From Thermoanaerobaculia bacterium (lineage in GTDB: Bacteria > Acidobacteriota > Thermoanaerobaculia > Gp7-AA8), in NCBI GenBank assembly GCA_041748075.1, contig JBGTDX010000118.1:66730-130729 (forward strand): 64,000 bases of DNA, read 5' to 3'. The notes under the pieces were generated by a model. The model searched no databases. It saw only the letters and a program-made list of their open reading frames with translations, and was not told the origin of the DNA. A program made the translations under genes and the position numbers. How positions within the stretch are numbered: the first letter of the stretch is position 1; every line of letters begins with the position of its first letter. Of the stretch, positions 3,045 through 61,898 are shown piece by piece.

Positions 3045-3225
3045 GTCAAAACTCCCGCCGTCATCCCGAGCAACCTAACGGCGCGGGGCGCCGGTGAAGG
3101 GGTGATGAACCGCGCACCGGAGGTGCGCTGAGAGGGTAGCCGGTGGCAAGCGAAGCGCAGCCACCGGACAGTGAGTCCCTCTTGTACACGCACCCCGGGT
3201 AGGGGTGCCAGATCCGACCTTGTTC

Positions 3226-9955: not shown

Positions 9956-9968
9956 TGACGCACGAGGT

Positions 9969-10052
9969 GTCATCCTGAGCGAAGCGAAGGATCCCCCCAA
10001 GCCTTGCGATACTGCCAGTTGTAAGGGGATCCTTCGCTTCGCTCAGGATGAC
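9969..10052. repeat. Palindromic repeat element, family R1 copy a (gtcatcctgagcgaagcgaaggatcc ... ggatccttcgcttcgctcaggatgac).
   Basis: About 26-bp perfect arms around a about 32-nt loop. It makes spurious VILSEAKDP-type ORFs on both strands (ORF track 9708..10229 and 9970..10341). Confidence 0.8.
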
Positions 10053-10110
10053 ACTTGCTCCCTTGGCACCGCGCGAGTCTACGATGCGTGGAGCGCGCAC
10101 GATCCTCTCG

Positions 10111-20263: not shown

Positions 20264-20737
20264 ATGTTCCGAAAGGTTAACGGAGAAAACGGATTCACAG
20301 TCGCCGAGCTCATTACGGTCGTGGCAATCATCGGCCTGCTCGCGGGGATGGCGATTCCGGTCGCAAAGTTCGGATTCCAGAGGCAGAAGGAGATCGAGCT
20401 CCGGAACAGACTTCGCAAGATCACCGATGCGATCGACCGCTACCACGACCTGCGGGTCAAGGGACTGATCAAAGAGCAGGTAACCCTCGGACAGGGCGAG
20501 TATCCGAAAGATCTTCAGCAGCTTGTCGAAGGCGTCGAGTTGATGGACGGAAAGAAAGTAAAGTTCCTGCGCGAGCGCGATCTGATCGACCCGATGACCG
20601 GCAGAAAAGAATGGTTCACCAGATCGAATACCGACGACTTCGATTCCATGAGCTCCGACAACAACAACGTCTTCGAAGTGCGATCGACCTCGACGAAACT
20701 CTCGCTGGACGGCAAGACGCGGTACAACGAATGGTGA
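20264..20737 (+). CDS. GspG/PulG-like type IV pilin (pilin 1).
   Basis: MFRKVNGENG|FTVAELITVVAIIGLLAGMAIPV is a canonical 10-aa leader plus N-methyl-Phe helix. Confidence 0.75.
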   Translation: MFRKVNGENGFTVAELITVVAIIGLLAGMAIPVAKFGFQRQKEIELRNRLRKITDAIDRYHDLRVKGLIKEQVTLGQGEYPKDLQQLVEGVELMDGKKVKFLRERDLIDPMTGRKEWFTRSNTDDFDSMSSDNNNVFEVRSTSTKLSLDGKTRYNEW

Positions 20738-20742
20738 AACTG

Positions 20743-21324
20743 ATGCCTGAAACTCGACGTGACGGTTGTGGGTTGTGGGTTGTGGGTTGTGGGACCGCCC
20801 GGACCCCACACAAACCCCAACTCACAACTCACAACTCACAACTCACAACCGGCCGGGCGGCGGCACCCACAACCCACAACCCACAACCCACAACCGGTCG
20901 GGCGGCCGGCTTCACCCTCATCGAGCTTCTCGTGGTCGTCACCATCGTCGGACTGCTCGCGGGCATCGCCGTCGTCAACGTCCTCGGGGCGCAGCGGAAG
21001 GCGGCGGAGAACGTGCTGAAAGCGGATCTCGCCCTGATGCGTCAGGGCATCGACAACTTCTACGCCGACAAACAGCGGTATCCCTCATCGCTCGAAGAGC
21101 TCGTCGAGGCGAAGTACATGCGCAGGATCCCCGTCGATCCGATCACGAAATCGGCCGACACATGGATCCCTGTCACCGAGGAAGTCGAGTTCGATGGAGG
21201 CGGCTTCGGGGGCAGTTTCGGCAGTGATTTCGATTATGACGCGCCCACGGGCCCCGGCATCGCCGACGTGAAGAGCGGCGCCGAGGGAGAAACCCTCGAT
21301 GGCGTGCCGTACGGGGAACTGTAA
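20743..21324 (+). CDS. GspG-like pseudopilin (pilin 2) with an unusually long, repeat-encoded leader. Start uncertain (ATG 20731 or 20743, or TTG/GTG 20770/20779).
   Basis: ORF track frame 20611..21324. Mature start ...TTGRAAG|FTLIELLVVVTIVGLLAGIAV at nt about 20908. There is no start codon between the repeat hairpin and the cleavage site, so the leader (about 40-56 aa) reads ...TTHNSQLTT...PTTHNPQPTT through the heptamer arrays. Confidence 0.55.
   Translation: MPETRRDGCGLWVVGCGTARTPHKPQLTTHNSQLTTGRAAAPTTHNPQPTTGRAAGFTLIELLVVVTIVGLLAGIAVVNVLGAQRKAAENVLKADLALMRQGIDNFYADKQRYPSSLEELVEAKYMRRIPVDPITKSADTWIPVTEEVEFDGGGFGGSFGSDFDYDAPTGPGIADVKSGAEGETLDGVPYGEL
20765..20894. repeat. Inverted arrays of heptanucleotide tandem repeats: (GTTGTGG)x4 ... 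(AACTCAC)x4 ... (CCCACAA)x4, forming an imperfect about 40-bp stem hairpin.
   Basis: Arrays seen at 20765-20792, 20819-20846 and 20866-20893. The flanking gaccgcccggacc / ggccgggcggc are also complementary. The whole structure is in-frame inside the leader of pilin 2. Confidence 0.9.
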
Positions 21325-21332
21325 GGTTTAGA

Positions 21333-21477
21333 GAACGGAATGTTGAATGTTGAATGTTGAATGTTGAATGAGCCCGCTTTCAAAGATTCTCGCGTGTGAC
21401 GAATGTTATGGATGCCCGCAGAAAAAACCTGCGCGGACCCATTCAACATTCAACATTCAACATTCAACATTCCGTTC
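21333..21477. repeat. Perfect 38-bp inverted repeat built from (ATGTTGA)x4+ATG and (TCAACAT)x4, separated by a 69-nt loop.
   Basis: gaacggaATGTTGAATGTTGAATGTTGAATGTTGAATG (21333-21370) is exactly complementary to CATTCAACATTCAACATTCAACATTCAACATtccgttc (21440-21477). The only usable start codon of pilin 3 (21368) is the last ATG of the left arm. Confidence 0.95.
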
Positions 21478-22099
21478 TAAAAATGTAAGAAATCAACAAG
21501 GCTTTACCTTAGCCTCCCTCCTCGTCATCCTGACCGTGATGTCGGTCATCCTCGCCTTCTCCGTCCCGCGCATGTGGTCCGACGTCATGCGAAGGGAGCG
21601 GGAGCAGCAGGCGGTCTGGGCGATGAAGCAGTACGCGCGCGCGATCACCGAGTATCAGAAAAAGCGCCGCGAGCTGCCGACGAAACTCGAGCAGCTCGAA
21701 GAGCAGACCGAGCCGCGAGTCATCCGCTCGCTCTATCCCAATCCATTCAGCGGAGAGCTCGACTGGGTTCCCGTGCCGCCGAGCACCGCCGTCCAGGTGC
21801 CCGGCCAGCCCGGCGCCCCTGGTGCGGGTCTTCCGACGCCGACGCCCGGATTGTTCCCTTCACCGTCGCCATCCCAGCCCGGGCTCAACCCGGGTACCGG
21901 ACTTCAGGGCGAATACTCCGGACCGATCGGCGGGGTCCGCCTCCCGCTGACGGGGCCGAGCATGATCGTTCTCAATGGTCAGGACCGGTACGAGAACTGG
22001 GTCTACACGATCACGGAGCTGGCGCAGGAGCAGAGTGGCGGTCCCGTCCAGGATCCGACGCGGGCGGCTCCGATTACACCGGGAAAGCCTAACCCATAA
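21368..22099 (+). CDS. GspG-like pseudopilin (pilin 3) with a Pro/Gly-rich C-terminal region. Its start codon lies inside the hairpin arm.
   Basis: MSPLSKILACDECYGCPQKKPARTHSTFNIQHSTFRSKNVRNQQG|FTLASLLVILTVMSVILAFSVP. The 45-aa leader is translated through the hairpin loop and right arm. Confidence 0.55.
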   Translation: MSPLSKILACDECYGCPQKKPARTHSTFNIQHSTFRSKNVRNQQGFTLASLLVILTVMSVILAFSVPRMWSDVMRREREQQAVWAMKQYARAITEYQKKRRELPTKLEQLEEQTEPRVIRSLYPNPFSGELDWVPVPPSTAVQVPGQPGAPGAGLPTPTPGLFPSPSPSQPGLNPGTGLQGEYSGPIGGVRLPLTGPSMIVLNGQDRYENWVYTITELAQEQSGGPVQDPTRAAPITPGKPNP

Positions 22100-22108
22100 A
22101 GCCCTCGT

Positions 22109-22192
22109 GTCATCCTGAGCGCAGCGAAGGATCCCCTGAGGACTTGCGGTAGCGCCTCGAGGCGGGGGATCCTTCGCTTCGCTCAGGTTGAC
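22109..22192. repeat. Family R1 palindromic element copy b (gtcatcctgagcgcagcgaaggatcccc ... ggggatccttcgcttcgctcaggttgac). Probable terminator after the pilin cluster.
   Basis: Seen directly, with about 27-bp arms. Confidence 0.8.
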
Positions 22193-22304
22193 ATCTTTGT
22201 CAGTTTGAGCTCCGAGTCCTAAAAACCGCTCCGGGACTCTCTCAAATGCACTAGTTCTGGAATGAATGGGTCGGCCAGAATTTCGCTCCTTCGAACTCCG
22301 TTGG

Positions 22305-23600: not shown

Positions 23601-23706
23601 AGGCACTGACGCTTCAGTGTCTTAACAGCGTTTCTCCACCATGATACGCGCCGTCATTGTCGAGCTCGGAATGACGCTCCAATTCTAACTGCGCTCTCGC
23701 AGCCCC

Positions 23707-24963
23707 TCAGGGCGTGTCGACGAACTCCACGGTCACTCCCTTGTCGACGATGCGGGCAAGGTCGCGCGCTTCCCAGTTCGGAAGTCTCACGCATCCGGCC
23801 GACGACGCGTAGCCGATCGATTCGGGATCGGACGTGCCGTGGATTCCGAAATGCGGCTTGCTCAGAGCCATCCAGACGATGCCGACCGGAGAGTTTGGAC
23901 CCGGCTTCAGATGCGCCTCGGCCTCGCTGTCATCGACGTGCGCGAATAGCTTCGGCTGGTAGTGAAAATGGGGATCGTGCGCGATCGCAGTGATGTTCAA
24001 CGTCTCGTTCGGTGACGGATCGTATTCGGATCCTACGGTGGTCGGCGAGTGACGGATCATGTTGCCCGAGGCGTCCATCGCGTGAAGGTAGTTGCCCTTG
24101 ACCGAGACGACGATCTTCGCGACGCTCTTCGTCGCGTTCTCGGGTCGCGGCGGGTTGACGTTGGGCACGAGGATCTGGGCCCCCGCCTGGAGCGTGTCGA
24201 TATCGACTCCGGGATTCAGCCGCACCAGCATGGCCGGGGACACGTGAAAGCGCTCGCCGAGTTTCTCGGTGAGCGTCTCGTAACAGAGGCAATCGAGCTT
24301 CTCCTTCTCGTAGACATCTTCCGGTATCTTTGTGAACGGGCCCGAGACGTCATCTGCGGTCAGGGTGTGCTGGACGAGCGCCGGACCGTTGGCGCGGCCA
24401 GCAAGAAGGCGGAAGGTCTGCTCGTCTATGGTTCCGGTCGGTGGAATGCCCTCTTCACGCTGAAACCAGTGAACCGCGATTTCCGAGTTCTTTCCCCATC
24501 GCCCATCGATGCTTCCGGGAGAGAAATTCGCCCGATCGAGGAGTACCTGAGCCCGGAGGACGGACGGGCCGCGGACATCTCCGGTGATCGGGACCGTCAC
24601 GGGCAGTGACTCGATAGCGGCAAAATCGACTCCGTCAAAGCTCTCTGTGACGCCAGCAGCCGGGCGAAACTGAATATTCTGCGCCGCGGGCGTAGAGGGT
24701 GCCGGTTGCTGGGCACGAACGGCCTGTTCGGCGCGGAACGACTGCAGATCCCGCCACTGTGCATCGAAGCGTTCCCGTTCCATCTGCTCCTGATTCGGAG
24801 GAGCGCCGACCGGCGCCGAAGTCTCGAATCGTTCCCGGACCGCCTGTCCGGTGCTCTGGGCCGCCTCGTTGACCCTGCTCATGGTATCGCTGGTGGTCGA
24901 CTCTCTGCTGCAGCCGAGTGTCACAACGAGCAACGCCGGCATGATCAGTTTTCTGTAGTTCAT
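23707..24963 (-). CDS. L,D-transpeptidase (YkuD) lipoprotein with a peptidoglycan-binding domain.
   Basis: Lipobox MNYRKLIMPALLVVTLGCS. PG-binding-like DGRWGKNSEIAVHWFQREEGIPPTG. Catalytic HG(T)...SAGCVRLPN. Shine-Dalgarno GAGGTGA upstream of ATG 24963. Confidence 0.8.
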   Translation of the reverse strand: MNYRKLIMPALLVVTLGCSRESTTSDTMSRVNEAAQSTGQAVRERFETSAPVGAPPNQEQMERERFDAQWRDLQSFRAEQAVRAQQPAPSTPAAQNIQFRPAAGVTESFDGVDFAAIESLPVTVPITGDVRGPSVLRAQVLLDRANFSPGSIDGRWGKNSEIAVHWFQREEGIPPTGTIDEQTFRLLAGRANGPALVQHTLTADDVSGPFTKIPEDVYEKEKLDCLCYETLTEKLGERFHVSPAMLVRLNPGVDIDTLQAGAQILVPNVNPPRPENATKSVAKIVVSVKGNYLHAMDASGNMIRHSPTTVGSEYDPSPNETLNITAIAHDPHFHYQPKLFAHVDDSEAEAHLKPGPNSPVGIVWMALSKPHFGIHGTSDPESIGYASSAGCVRLPNWEARDLARIVDKGVTVEFVDTP

Positions 24964-25167
24964 GGTGGTGTTCCCTTTCACCTCGTGTACAAAGCAAGGA
25001 TGCTGCCCACGGATGAGGTTCCCGGTTCTGGGTCTGGGTTCCGGCAGTTCCGGGAGAGTCGAATCGTTTCGGCCACGTGACATCAGTTCGATGATGAGTG
25101 CATCATTGAAATCGCAAATCAAAGAAGGACGTCTTCCCAAGCCAGAACCCGGAACCCAGAACCCAAA

Positions 25168-39735: not shown

Positions 39736-39956
39736 CGTACTTCTCCTAATCCGCCCAGTCGGAAATGCGGGTGACATGCCACGAGACCTAAAACCACTAA
39801 GGCTTTAATATCAGTAGGATACGCCCTGAAGAGCCCGCCTCGAGCATCCGGGAATTCCTCTACAGAGGACACTGCGTCACCCGCAGGTGTCAGGGAGCTT
39901 TAGTTATTAGACTATAACGGGTTGCGGGGAGGAATCATTTCTTGCCGCCTGGGTGA

Positions 39957-40026
39957 AGAATTCAGAATTCAGAATGAAGAAAGAAGACTGGCCCTGGTCC
40001 TTTCTGCATTCTGAATTCTAAATTCT
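39957..40026. terminator. Long imperfect AT-rich palindrome (gaattcagaattcagaatg...cattctgaattctaaattc); probable terminator downstream of aroK.
   Basis: About 70-nt near-palindrome seen directly. Confidence 0.5.
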
Positions 40027-40035
40027 CAATTCTCC

Positions 40036-43516: not shown

Positions 43517-44351
43517 TCCGCCTCTGGTTGCGCTGGATCAAAGTAAGCCACCGGTGAAGTTTCTCGATGGTCTTCTGCCTCTGCTCGTCGTGGTCCGGCA
43601 CGATCGAGAGCGCCGGCCCCGCCTCGACAGGATTCGACGCTTCTTCCCCTCTCCCCGCGGGAGAGGGGTCAGGGGTTAGGGAACCTTGTTGAGGTGAACG
43701 TTCCGTTAGACCTTCGACTTCCCCGATGGCCTCGAGCTCCTCCGGATCCCACGTCACTTCGCCCTGACGACCCTCGGACTCGATTTGAGTTGCTGACTCA
43801 CTCTCGGGACCGTTGAACGGATCAAAGACGGGAGCCATCACCCCTGACCCCTCTCCCGCGGGGAGAGGGGAAAAGGCAACATCCCGGAACTCCGGAATCT
43901 CCTCGGTGACCTGAATCGGGCGGGAGTACTTTTCCGGATTGAGCTGTCGCTCGAGGGTTTCGATGCTCGCCTGGACTTCCAGATCGGACGGGATGAATGC
44001 ATGGACGAGCTTGAACTTCTTAATGGCTTCCACCTTCTCGCCGAGCGCGAGATACGATTCGGCCGCCAGCCGGGCAGCCACGACATTCTCCGGATCGATC
44101 TGGAGTGCGCGCGAGAGTGCTTCGACCGCCTCGCCATGGCGCTCCTGCTGGGAGAGCAGTCTGCCGAGACTCACCCAGGCGGACAGATAGGCGGGATGCC
44201 GTTCGATTCCCTCCCGCAGTACCCGCTCGGCCTCCTCGACCTGTCCCGCCTTCCGCAGCTCCTCCGCCAGGGGAAAGAACATCCTGGATCCGGGATCGGA
44301 CGCGAGCCGAGCCTTCAGCTCGTCGATCTTCGGGCTTTCAGGACCAGTCAT
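43509..44351 (-). CDS. TPR-repeat protein with an acidic C-terminal region containing two in-frame copies of the R3 palindrome.
   Basis: TPR-like ...AERVLREGIERHPAYLSAWVSLGRLL...ALQIDPENVVA.... The C-terminus carries SPLPAGEGSG and PSPAGRGEE, encoded by the palindromes. Confidence 0.65.
   Translation of the reverse strand: MTGPESPKIDELKARLASDPGSRMFFPLAEELRKAGQVEEAERVLREGIERHPAYLSAWVSLGRLLSQQERHGEAVEALSRALQIDPENVVAARLAAESYLALGEKVEAIKKFKLVHAFIPSDLEVQASIETLERQLNPEKYSRPIQVTEEIPEFRDVAFSPLPAGEGSGVMAPVFDPFNGPESESATQIESEGRQGEVTWDPEELEAIGEVEGLTERSPQQGSLTPDPSPAGRGEEASNPVEAGPALSIVPDHDEQRQKTIEKLHRWLTLIQRNQRRND
43646..43675. repeat. R3 palindromic element copy b (cccctctccccgcgggagaggggtcaggggt), inside the TPR CDS.
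   Basis: Seen directly. Confidence 0.6.
43841..43872. repeat. R3 element copy c (acccctgacccctctcccgcggggagagggg), inverted relative to copy b, inside the TPR CDS.
   Basis: Reverse complement matches copy b including the flanking gaggggtcaggggt. Confidence 0.6.
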
Positions 44352-61844: not shown

Positions 61845-61898
61845 CTAGTGTCCTGTAACGGTGAAATCGCTAGCGATTTCACCGTTACAGGACACTAG
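61845..61898. repeat. Perfect 54-bp palindrome CTAGTGTCCTGTAACGGTGAAATCGCT|AGCGATTTCACCGTTACAGGACACTAG, between the divergent kinase-fusion and rho genes.
   Basis: 27+27 nt exact inverted repeat read directly. The 9-mer CTAGTGTCC recurs at 53539 and 58482. Confidence 0.95.

Follow-up and report, generated by a model that had tools for sequence, protein, structure and literature searches.

The stretch of Thermoanaerobaculia DNA analysed here (64,000 nt of contig JBGTDX010000118.1 in assembly GCA_041748075.1, positions 66,730 to 130,729; called the window in what follows) contains three consecutive pilin-like genes. Between the second and the third of these lies a hairpin made of tandem heptanucleotide repeats, which we call hairpin B. 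To judge from related genomes, hairpin B is one member of a repeat class that is common in Thermoanaerobaculia, and it is not specific for pilin 3. The reading that we consider moderately probable as a whole is that an element of this class, placed after the pilin-2 stop codon, forms part of the in-frame prepilin leader of pilin 3, provides the start codon from its left arm, and modulates pilin-3 translation as a hairpin. As far as sequence goes, the comparison shows the structure of the element, its class membership, its position, the conservation of its frame, and the derivation of the start codon from the array. The parts of the locus are the following.

21322..21324, plus strand: pilin-2 stop codon TAA, 2 nt ahead of the base of the extended hairpin B stem
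21327..21377, plus strand: left (5') arm of hairpin B, perfect over 21333-21370, with the array (GAATGTT)x4.7 at 21338-21370
21368..21370, plus strand: pilin-3 start ATG, the sole usable start, last triplet of the left arm and base-paired in the predicted stem
21371..21439, plus strand: loop of hairpin B, 69 nt, which translates to SPLSKILACDECYGCPQKKPART
21433..21483, plus strand: right (3') arm of hairpin B, perfect over 21440-21477, with the array (CATTCAA)x4.7 at 21440-21472
21473..21502, plus strand: leader tail ...RSKNVRNQQG, ending at the Gly(-1) codon 21500-21502, with predicted prepilin-peptidase cleavage before F (21503)
21368..22099, plus strand: open reading frame (ORF) of pilin 3, 243 aa, comprising a 45-aa leader and a 198-aa mature pilin-like protein without Glu5

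The left arm of hairpin B (21333-21370) reads GAACGGA, four ATGTTGA units and a final ATG. The right arm (21440-21477) reads CAT, four TCAACAT units and TCCGTTC and is its exact reverse complement over 38 bp, so that the perfect heptamer hairpin with a 69-nt loop, reported in a preliminary description of this DNA, is present in the sequence exactly as described. A repeat finder extended the stem to 51-nt arms with 92% complementarity (21327-21377 and 21433-21483), and Tandem Repeats Finder identified two perfect period-7 arrays of 4.7 copies each. The 17-mer ATGTTGAATGTTGAATG is confined, in the window, to the two arms of hairpin B; 0 matches would be expected by chance. The RNA fold of 21320-21500, a check that had been proposed earlier, had a predicted free energy of -82.2 kcal/mol, compared with -35.3 +/- 3.7 kcal/mol for shuffled sequences (z = -12.6). 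In the predicted minimum free energy (MFE) fold the AUG at 21368-21370 is paired, in keeping with the earlier suggestion that the start codon would be sequestered. Rfam gave no hit at gathering score in the 64-kb window, with sub-threshold matches only (to microRNA-precursor and other unrelated models), and assigned no family to hairpin B, to its upstream counterpart hairpin A (see below), or to two degenerate copies in the window.

All five left-arm ATGs at 7-nt spacing that had been listed were found (21340, 21347, 21354, 21361 and 21368). Only the last of them is both open and in frame with G|FTLASLL, whose G codon begins at 21500; ATG 21347 shares the frame, and runs into a TGA at 21365. 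The left arm has a TGA in all three frames, each immediately followed by an ATG, and for this reason no upstream start can be used in the clade of the window. The right arm is stop-free in every frame and translates to HSTFNIQHSTF. A start downstream of the hairpin, the finding that would have undermined the earlier assignment, was searched for and ruled out: between the right arm and the G codon there is no in-frame ATG, GTG, TTG, CTG or ATH codon, with four relatives checked, and ATG 21483 is out of frame (ATG TAA). The claim that ATG 21368, inside the stem, is the only usable start of pilin 3 thus stood, and the ortholog at locus L001 is annotated by NCBI as a prepilin-type protein with the identical start ATG.

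The public gene call for the window genome, P0002 (186 aa, 100% identical to the locus), starts at Met57 (21536), so that the cleavage site is lost together with half of the conserved helix at the N-terminus. We ruled out this start because, over the first 30 codons counted from Gly(-1), window and L001 are separated by 12 synonymous changes and 0 non-synonymous ones; the upstream segment G|FTLASLLVILTV is under strict amino-acid conservation. Gene callers mis-start these pilins because of the hairpin.

Pilin 3 has the leader glycine, followed by F/M and a hydrophobic N-terminal helix, that is expected of a prepilin. Its sole Pfam match is to PF07963 (N_methyl), at 21.3 bits against a cut-off of 21.2. 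The designation as a GspG-like pilin was therefore not borne out, since Pfam detects the N-methyl motif only and a weak T2SSG match falls on pilin 2. Among 26 homologs, G1, L4, A5, L8, V9, I10 and L11 are nearly invariant. Position 5 in the family is Ser or Ala and not the Glu5 of type IV prepilins, and the 45-aa leader lies outside the usual short range (about 6-30 aa), compared with 9-13 aa in canonical orthologs. All pilin-3 homologs and 30 genome loci came from metagenome-assembled genomes (MAGs) of Thermoanaerobaculia (Acidobacteriota).

The conserved frame indicates that the inserted DNA is translated. Canonical orthologs have the start ATG of pilin 3 within pilin 2, about 21 nt short of its 3' end (...GACAATGTCGCC...TGA...GGCTTC); their leader reads MSPTRTSDSERG, and the gap from the pilin-2 stop to the Gly(-1) codon measures 4-25 nt (29 loci). 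Since this ATG is inside the end of pilin 2, inserts after the pilin-2 stop fall into the pilin-3 leader frame. The gap is expanded to 28-259 nt in 25 of 54 loci, and the added DNA has an MFE between -14 and -150 kcal/mol. The distance from stop to cleavage site equals 1 mod 3 in 51 of the 54 loci, which include related ones, in spite of inserts of 20-250 nt, and each of the three exceptions has its own in-frame start after the pilin-2 stop. At 13 expanded loci the native ATG upstream of the insert is the sole in-frame start; altogether, an in-frame start is retained in 25/25 expanded loci, and no out-of-frame allele was found anywhere. With about a dozen independent insert lineages, such frame conservation is, by this comparison, far from chance. 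Retention of the frame, together with a native ATG as the only start, indicates that inserts between the pilin-2 stop and the cleavage site are translated as leader. This agrees with the earlier claim that the 45-aa leader is read through loop and right arm, and at the hairpin B site a left-arm ATG is in frame and open to G|FTLASLL in all four genomes compared (window, L001, L002 and L004). In approximately 45% of the sampled orthologous pilin-3 loci the leader ORF thus contains a structured insert; the frame is preserved, and the leaders measure 18 to more than 90 aa.

As a separate observation, the pilin-2 stop is TAG or TAA in 20/25 loci with an insert and in 8/29 without one (Fisher p = 1.5e-4, phylogeny not corrected), and between L039 and L043 the change of this stop from TGA to TAG coincides exactly with the insertion junction.

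The repeat class was recognised from array statistics. In 512 kb of related DNA, period 7 accounted for 47 exact arrays with 3 or more copies, and any other period between 4 and 12 for 0-5. In 657 kb of Thermoanaerobaculia DNA, 124 arrays of at least 2.4 copies were found; 97 of these (78%) have an inverted partner within 300 nt and 16 a direct one, and the non-redundant heptamer hairpins number about 50. Each genome has few heptamer families with several sites each, such as AAAATTG at three sites in L007 and AGTCCTG in L014 and L025, and the window clade alone has five different heptamers. Where one genome has several elements with the same heptamer, their loops, 30-95 nt in length, are unrelated (the three sites in L007), and hence these are not copies of a miniature inverted-repeat transposable element; such an origin was ruled out by the loops and by the lack of target-site duplications at insertion junctions.

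The elements have a clear polarity. The 5' arm is G-rich (G-C > 0) in 41/50 elements and contains a stop triplet, mostly a TGA that recurs in all three frames, in 21/50, compared with 6/50 for the 3' arm; the left arm typically starts 2-30 nt past a stop codon. The pilin block holds 0.207 elements per kb and the DNA outside it 0.046 per kb (4.5-fold, p = 1.6e-6), with clusters at the junction of pilins 1 and 2, at the junction of pilins 2 and 3, and just after pilin 3. Several MAG contigs have an end that coincides exactly with a heptamer array (L001 at position 1, L019 at 1-19, L027 at 3059-3083), and the L001 contig starts with the first mature pilin-2 codon, just past the site of hairpin A. 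It would seem that short-read assembly breaks off at the arrays. In practice, then, assemblies are interrupted at the arrays and pilins are mis-started by gene callers, as in the window genome's own call at Met57.

The architecture of hairpin B recurs 570 nt upstream, past the stop of pilin 1 and ahead of the cleavage site of pilin 2, in a copy that the preliminary description had not mentioned.

20731..21324, plus strand: pilin 2 (FTLIELL type), with a native ATG at 20731 that overlaps the pilin-1 stop (ATGGTGA)
20763..20896, plus strand: hairpin A, (GGTTGTG)x4.3 / (CACAACC)x4.4, with 31-nt perfect arms

The loop of hairpin A holds a third array, (CAACTCA)x4.6, at 20818-20849, and its MFE is -98.9 kcal/mol (z = -8.1). 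Hairpin A is stop-free and lies wholly within the leader ORF of pilin 2, which is why this leader has 60 aa. The same site in L004 is occupied by a GGTTCTG/CAGAACC hairpin, in frame and giving an 89-aa leader, and L019 and L030 have further arrays in frame downstream of the native pilin-2 ATG, whose 'QRMV' context is conserved, and in frame, at the large majority of orthologous loci. Pilin 2 itself matches N_methyl in Pfam with E = 1e-6, besides the weak T2SSG match. The left arm of hairpin A also matches the G3N4 G-quadruplex (G4) motif at 20764-20793, as (GGGTTGT)x4. The GGGTTCT family (element D of the window, see below, and hairpin A' in L004) likewise matches G3N4 and resembles the G4-forming heptamers of Xanthomonas and Nostoc.

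The GAATGTT hairpin at the hairpin B site is shared by L001 (GCA_035512555.1), L004 and L002/L003. The loop is 64/68 identical in L001, is unrelated in L002, and in L004 is partly replaced by a nested palindrome resembling repetitive extragenic palindromic (REP) sequences, which brings it to 149 nt; the frame is kept in L002, in spite of three right-arm blocks, and in L004. The window and L001 are conspecific, with M16 peptidase and recN 99% identical and four-fold sites 94-96% identical. Between the two, the arms of hairpin B are identical at 33/33 and 32/33 positions, compared with 17/26 in the adjoining tail and 32% at the four-fold sites of pilin 3. Compared with L001 and L004, the leader tail of the window is shortened by a 9-nt deletion that keeps the frame. 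A compensatory change is found at the stem base, which reads GAACGG/CCGTTC in the window and GACCGG/CCGGTC in L004. The island of conservation at hairpin B may be due to constraint on the element, or to recombination that broke at its ends. JGI metagenomes, scanned for the exact pattern, yielded no close strain. A search for conspecifics with the M16 peptidase yielded one 1.8-kb contig, which was too short to reach the hairpin, and more distant relatives, namely L079/L080, which have no hairpin, and L081-83, whose hairpin is built of another heptamer.

The proposed sequence of events runs as follows. As the pilin junctions of this operon hold no DNA that is truly non-coding, an element placed there would become part of the prepilin leader ORF. 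Prepilin peptidase is expected to remove the leader at G|F, and for this reason the insert would do no harm as long as it is in frame and stop-free. In the clade of the window the last ATG of the array would then serve as the start of pilin 3, and a 45-aa leader would be made from loop, right arm and tail. In the polycistronic mRNA, the stem, 2 nt past the pilin-2 stop, would bury an AUG that has no Shine-Dalgarno sequence, and initiation of pilin 3 should therefore be weak. It would depend on ribosomes that finish pilin 2 and open the stem, and a mini-ORF (21347-21367) whose last base directly precedes the AUG could relay ribosomes through the stem. In addition, the stem may lend stability to the pilin message upstream of it. 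On balance, the hairpin would set pilin stoichiometry, and we think it likely that the hairpin throttles pilin-3 translation or couples it to that of pilin 2.

Several points weigh against this reading. That the hairpin forms in RNA and acts on translation is inferred from sequence. The mini-ORF arrangement is kept in L001 and not in L004. To our knowledge, type IV prepilin leaders of 45-96 aa are unprecedented, and their processing is predicted only. The frame statistics include related loci, which represent about a dozen independent insert lineages. Stem mismatches in the class comprise 28 G:U and 42 A:C pairs on the sense strand (p = 0.12); without an excess of G:U there is no signature of selection at the RNA level, and complementarity could be kept or made at the DNA level. 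Finally, elements C and D, which are older copies, show the decay expected of a neutral repeat.

The last two points keep a serious rival in play: the hairpins may be neutral or selfish passengers, by-products of a repeat-generating or spreading process that persist where they are harmless and have no adaptive role in the pilins. We hold this to be possible, if on the whole unlikely. It would fit with the unrelated loops and the several heptamer families per genome, and also with the speed of turnover: L043 and its relatives L039, L041 and L042, at 95-97% identity, differ by gain, loss or replacement of whole elements, as do the window and L004 at hairpin A. L079 and L080 manage without a hairpin and with a 10-aa pilin-3 leader. 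A mere passenger would not, however, be expected to reach a 4.5-fold density in the pilin block with clustering at three pilin junctions, or to have arms and a loop that are conserved far above neighbouring neutral sites between window and L001, or to show a compensatory change at its stem base. Moreover, a 38-bp stem over the sole start codon cannot leave translation unaffected.

At the opposite end is the idea that the hairpins are functional modules of pilin operons, which contribute stops in all frames and sometimes a start. A stem opened only by terminating ribosomes would gate the downstream pilins, and through slippage and break-prone palindromes pilins would rapidly be switched ON/OFF or changed in level, and strains would exchange pilin alleles. 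Were this true, the elements would represent an undescribed way to diversify or tune a pilus, and the 45-96-aa leaders would be a by-product. We regard so strong a version as doubtful.

A narrower proposal, made in the preliminary description, was a contingency switch in which slippage by one 7-nt unit in the right arm, which is translated, would put leader and mature pilin into different frames and so switch pilin 3 ON or OFF. The unit length is indeed not divisible by 3, and the right-arm array (21440-21472) lies inside the ORF, downstream of ATG 21368 and upstream of the G codon at 21500. Slippage does occur, with left arms of 3.7 copies in L004, 4.7 in the window and about 6.7 in L001 (6 plus a variant unit), and an interrupted array in L002. 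Arrays also shrink or grow between close relatives (hairpin A, window and L004), and the pilin is a surface protein that is hypervariable between strains. The translated arm, in contrast, is constant, with 4.7 copies in the window, 4.6 in L001 and 4.7 in L004, as read from consensus assemblies. Because the window and L001 are conspecific, repeat number varies within the species in the untranslated arm only; the variation among relatives that had been anticipated was thus found, and it spared the arm in which it would shift the frame. Independent samples of the same populations share leader sequence or array (L019/L044, L025/L055, L002/L003; L081-83), arrays of 4-5 units are short for a high-rate switch, and most copies of the class are outside ORFs, where there is no frame to switch. 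With an in-frame start at every expanded locus, and the native frame lost only where another start replaces it, ON/OFF phase variation is not supported. The comparisons argue against a frequent switch, and we judge phase variation at this locus to be improbable.

Hairpins could also mark the limits of exchangeable pilin cassettes, as break-prone sites or as anchors of homology, and promote allele swapping between strains. Flanking genes of the window and L001 are 98-100% identical and the tract 21148-22240 is highly divergent except for hairpin B (94-98% identical), which lies between two divergent parts. The tract comprises the C-terminal third of pilin 2, the whole of pilin 3 (79% identical in nucleotides, 89% in amino acids) and the spacer after it. 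The pilin-3 allele of the window is nearer to that of the more distant L004 (92% at nucleotide level) than to that of the conspecific L001 (79%), and the G3N4 match in the left arm of hairpin A also speaks for this reading. To judge from these identities, pilin alleles are hypervariable and probably exchanged between strains. The case for the hairpins as boundaries is based on one strain pair, however; L043 and L039 (97% identical) differ in junction elements only, with no exchange of pilins, and the island of conservation is equally explained by constraint on the element. A role as recombination boundary is thus hardly probable. An intrinsic terminator between pilins 2 and 3, which a strong stem directly past a stop codon might suggest, is very improbable, as there is no T-run after the stem on either strand, a terminator scan was empty at 21327-21483, and the downstream pilin N-terminus is under clear coding constraint without a promoter-like site of its own.

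The three pilin-like genes follow genes for a T2SS-F/PilC-like protein, a GspE/PilB ATPase, PilN, PilO and a TPR-secretin. A large hairpin is found after each of the three pilin genes, the third being a REP-like palindrome. Other repeat features of the window are listed below.

22108..22193, unstranded: REP-like palindrome (GTCATCCTGAGCGCAGCGAAGGATCCCC...) directly after the pilin-3 stop, MFE -62.9 kcal/mol, z = -7.1
about 25017-25165: element D, degenerate GGTTCTG/CAGAACC, upstream of recN
39954-40033: degenerate element AGAATTC/GAATTCT, just past the stop of a minus-strand gene

The REP-like palindrome consists of GTGTCATCCTGAGCG[A/C]AGCGAAGGATCCCC and an inverted copy, separated by a 28-nt spacer. 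It occurs twice in the window (9967-10054 and 22108-22193), and a third copy is the one nested in the hairpin B loop of L004 (L004 2550-2635); it is a second, sequence-defined family of palindromic repeats in these genomes. The loop of element D (25047-25136) is 85/85 identical to L001 and contains the palindrome ATGATG-N4-CATCAT and a promoter-like match at 25077-25106; it may be a promoter or operator of recN. The right arm of element D abuts the recN ATG (25168), with no obvious Shine-Dalgarno sequence. Elsewhere, 61845-61898 is a perfect 54-bp palindrome without spacer (CTAGTGTCCTGTAACGGTGAAATCGCT and its reverse complement), and 43639-43681 and 43835-43877 form an inverted repeat with 43-nt arms, 91% complementary, around a 153-nt spacer, rich in CCCCTCTCCCCGCGGGAGAGGGG. 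In the gap between the M16 peptidase and YkuD genes (window 23602-23717, L001 2654-6082), about 3.6 kb are present in L001 and absent from the window; they contain an 89-aa ORF and an 838-aa FG-GAP-repeat ORF.

The elements can be compared with several known systems. Literature combining heptamer repeats with Acidobacteria or Thermoanaerobaculia yielded no paper on such elements in the phylum. In REP/BIME/REPIN extragenic palindromes of Enterobacteria and Pseudomonas (PMC3116915, PMC3184786), as here, abundant palindromes are located between operon genes and near stop codons. REPs have one consensus per family and are linked to RAYT transposases, whereas the arms of heptamer hairpins have many sequences. 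REP elements can act as mRNA 3' stabilisers or as translation modulators.

Phase-variable repeats in leader peptides are known from the CTCTT pentamers of Neisseria opa and the poly-G tract of pilC. They have in common with hairpin B a repeat unit that is not a multiple of 3, in a region that encodes the cleaved N-terminal leader of a surface protein. Neisseria has frequent OFF alleles and long, variable, unpaired arrays; here no OFF allele was found and the translated array is constant.

Direct TAACTGA heptamers have been described in Beggiatoaceae, cyanobacteria and Bacteroidetes (MacGregor 2015, PMC4679880), and short tandemly repeated repetitive (STRR) sequences and the Nostoc TTTTGAA heptamers in cyanobacteria (bioRxiv 10.1101/2022.06.06.494920). 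Such arrays resemble the present ones in lying a few nt from start codons and overlapping upstream stops, with stops in three frames in the forward orientation and reverse copies only at the ORF periphery; a Shine-Dalgarno sequence is often absent, and a translational role has been proposed. They differ in being mostly direct (one indirect repeat among 170 in BOGUAY), without a long stem, and have not been reported in pilin leaders.

The closest precedent for hairpin B is the GGGAATC repeat of Xanthomonas (Rehm et al. 2015, PMC4692102). There, tandem heptamer arrays are over-represented relative to other periods, 70-75 convergent array pairs per genome are able to form stem-loops, array length varies between related species with the type kept, and coding regions hold fewer of the repeats than expected. 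The excess of period 7, the convergent pairing, the G-rich arm placed first and the position after stops are common to both (PMC4692102). The preliminary description knew of no pilin leader peptides encoded by inverted heptamer arrays; paired inverted heptamer arrays as such, near stop and start codons, do have a precedent in the Xanthomonas pairs. Xanthomonas has one dominant G4-forming heptamer per genome; the genomes studied here have several, most of which are not G4-capable (GAATGTT, AGAATTC, AAAATTG). GAATGTT has no G-tract, and only GGGTTGT and GGGTTCT fit G3N4. In addition, the Xanthomonas repeats are rarer than expected in coding DNA, whereas here, in another phylum, they are found in frame in prepilin leader ORFs, one of them supplying the start codon. 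What is known, therefore, is the paired inverted array; what is new is in-frame residence in prepilin leaders and the donation of a start codon. Such elements, which can reside inside a reading frame and in one case provide its start, offer a natural test bed for the limit to which a prepilin leader can be stretched, for ribosome starts inside very stable stems, and for the role of intergenic heptamers, and they extend paired inverted heptamer arrays from Xanthomonas to Acidobacteriota, with many heptamer sequences per genome.

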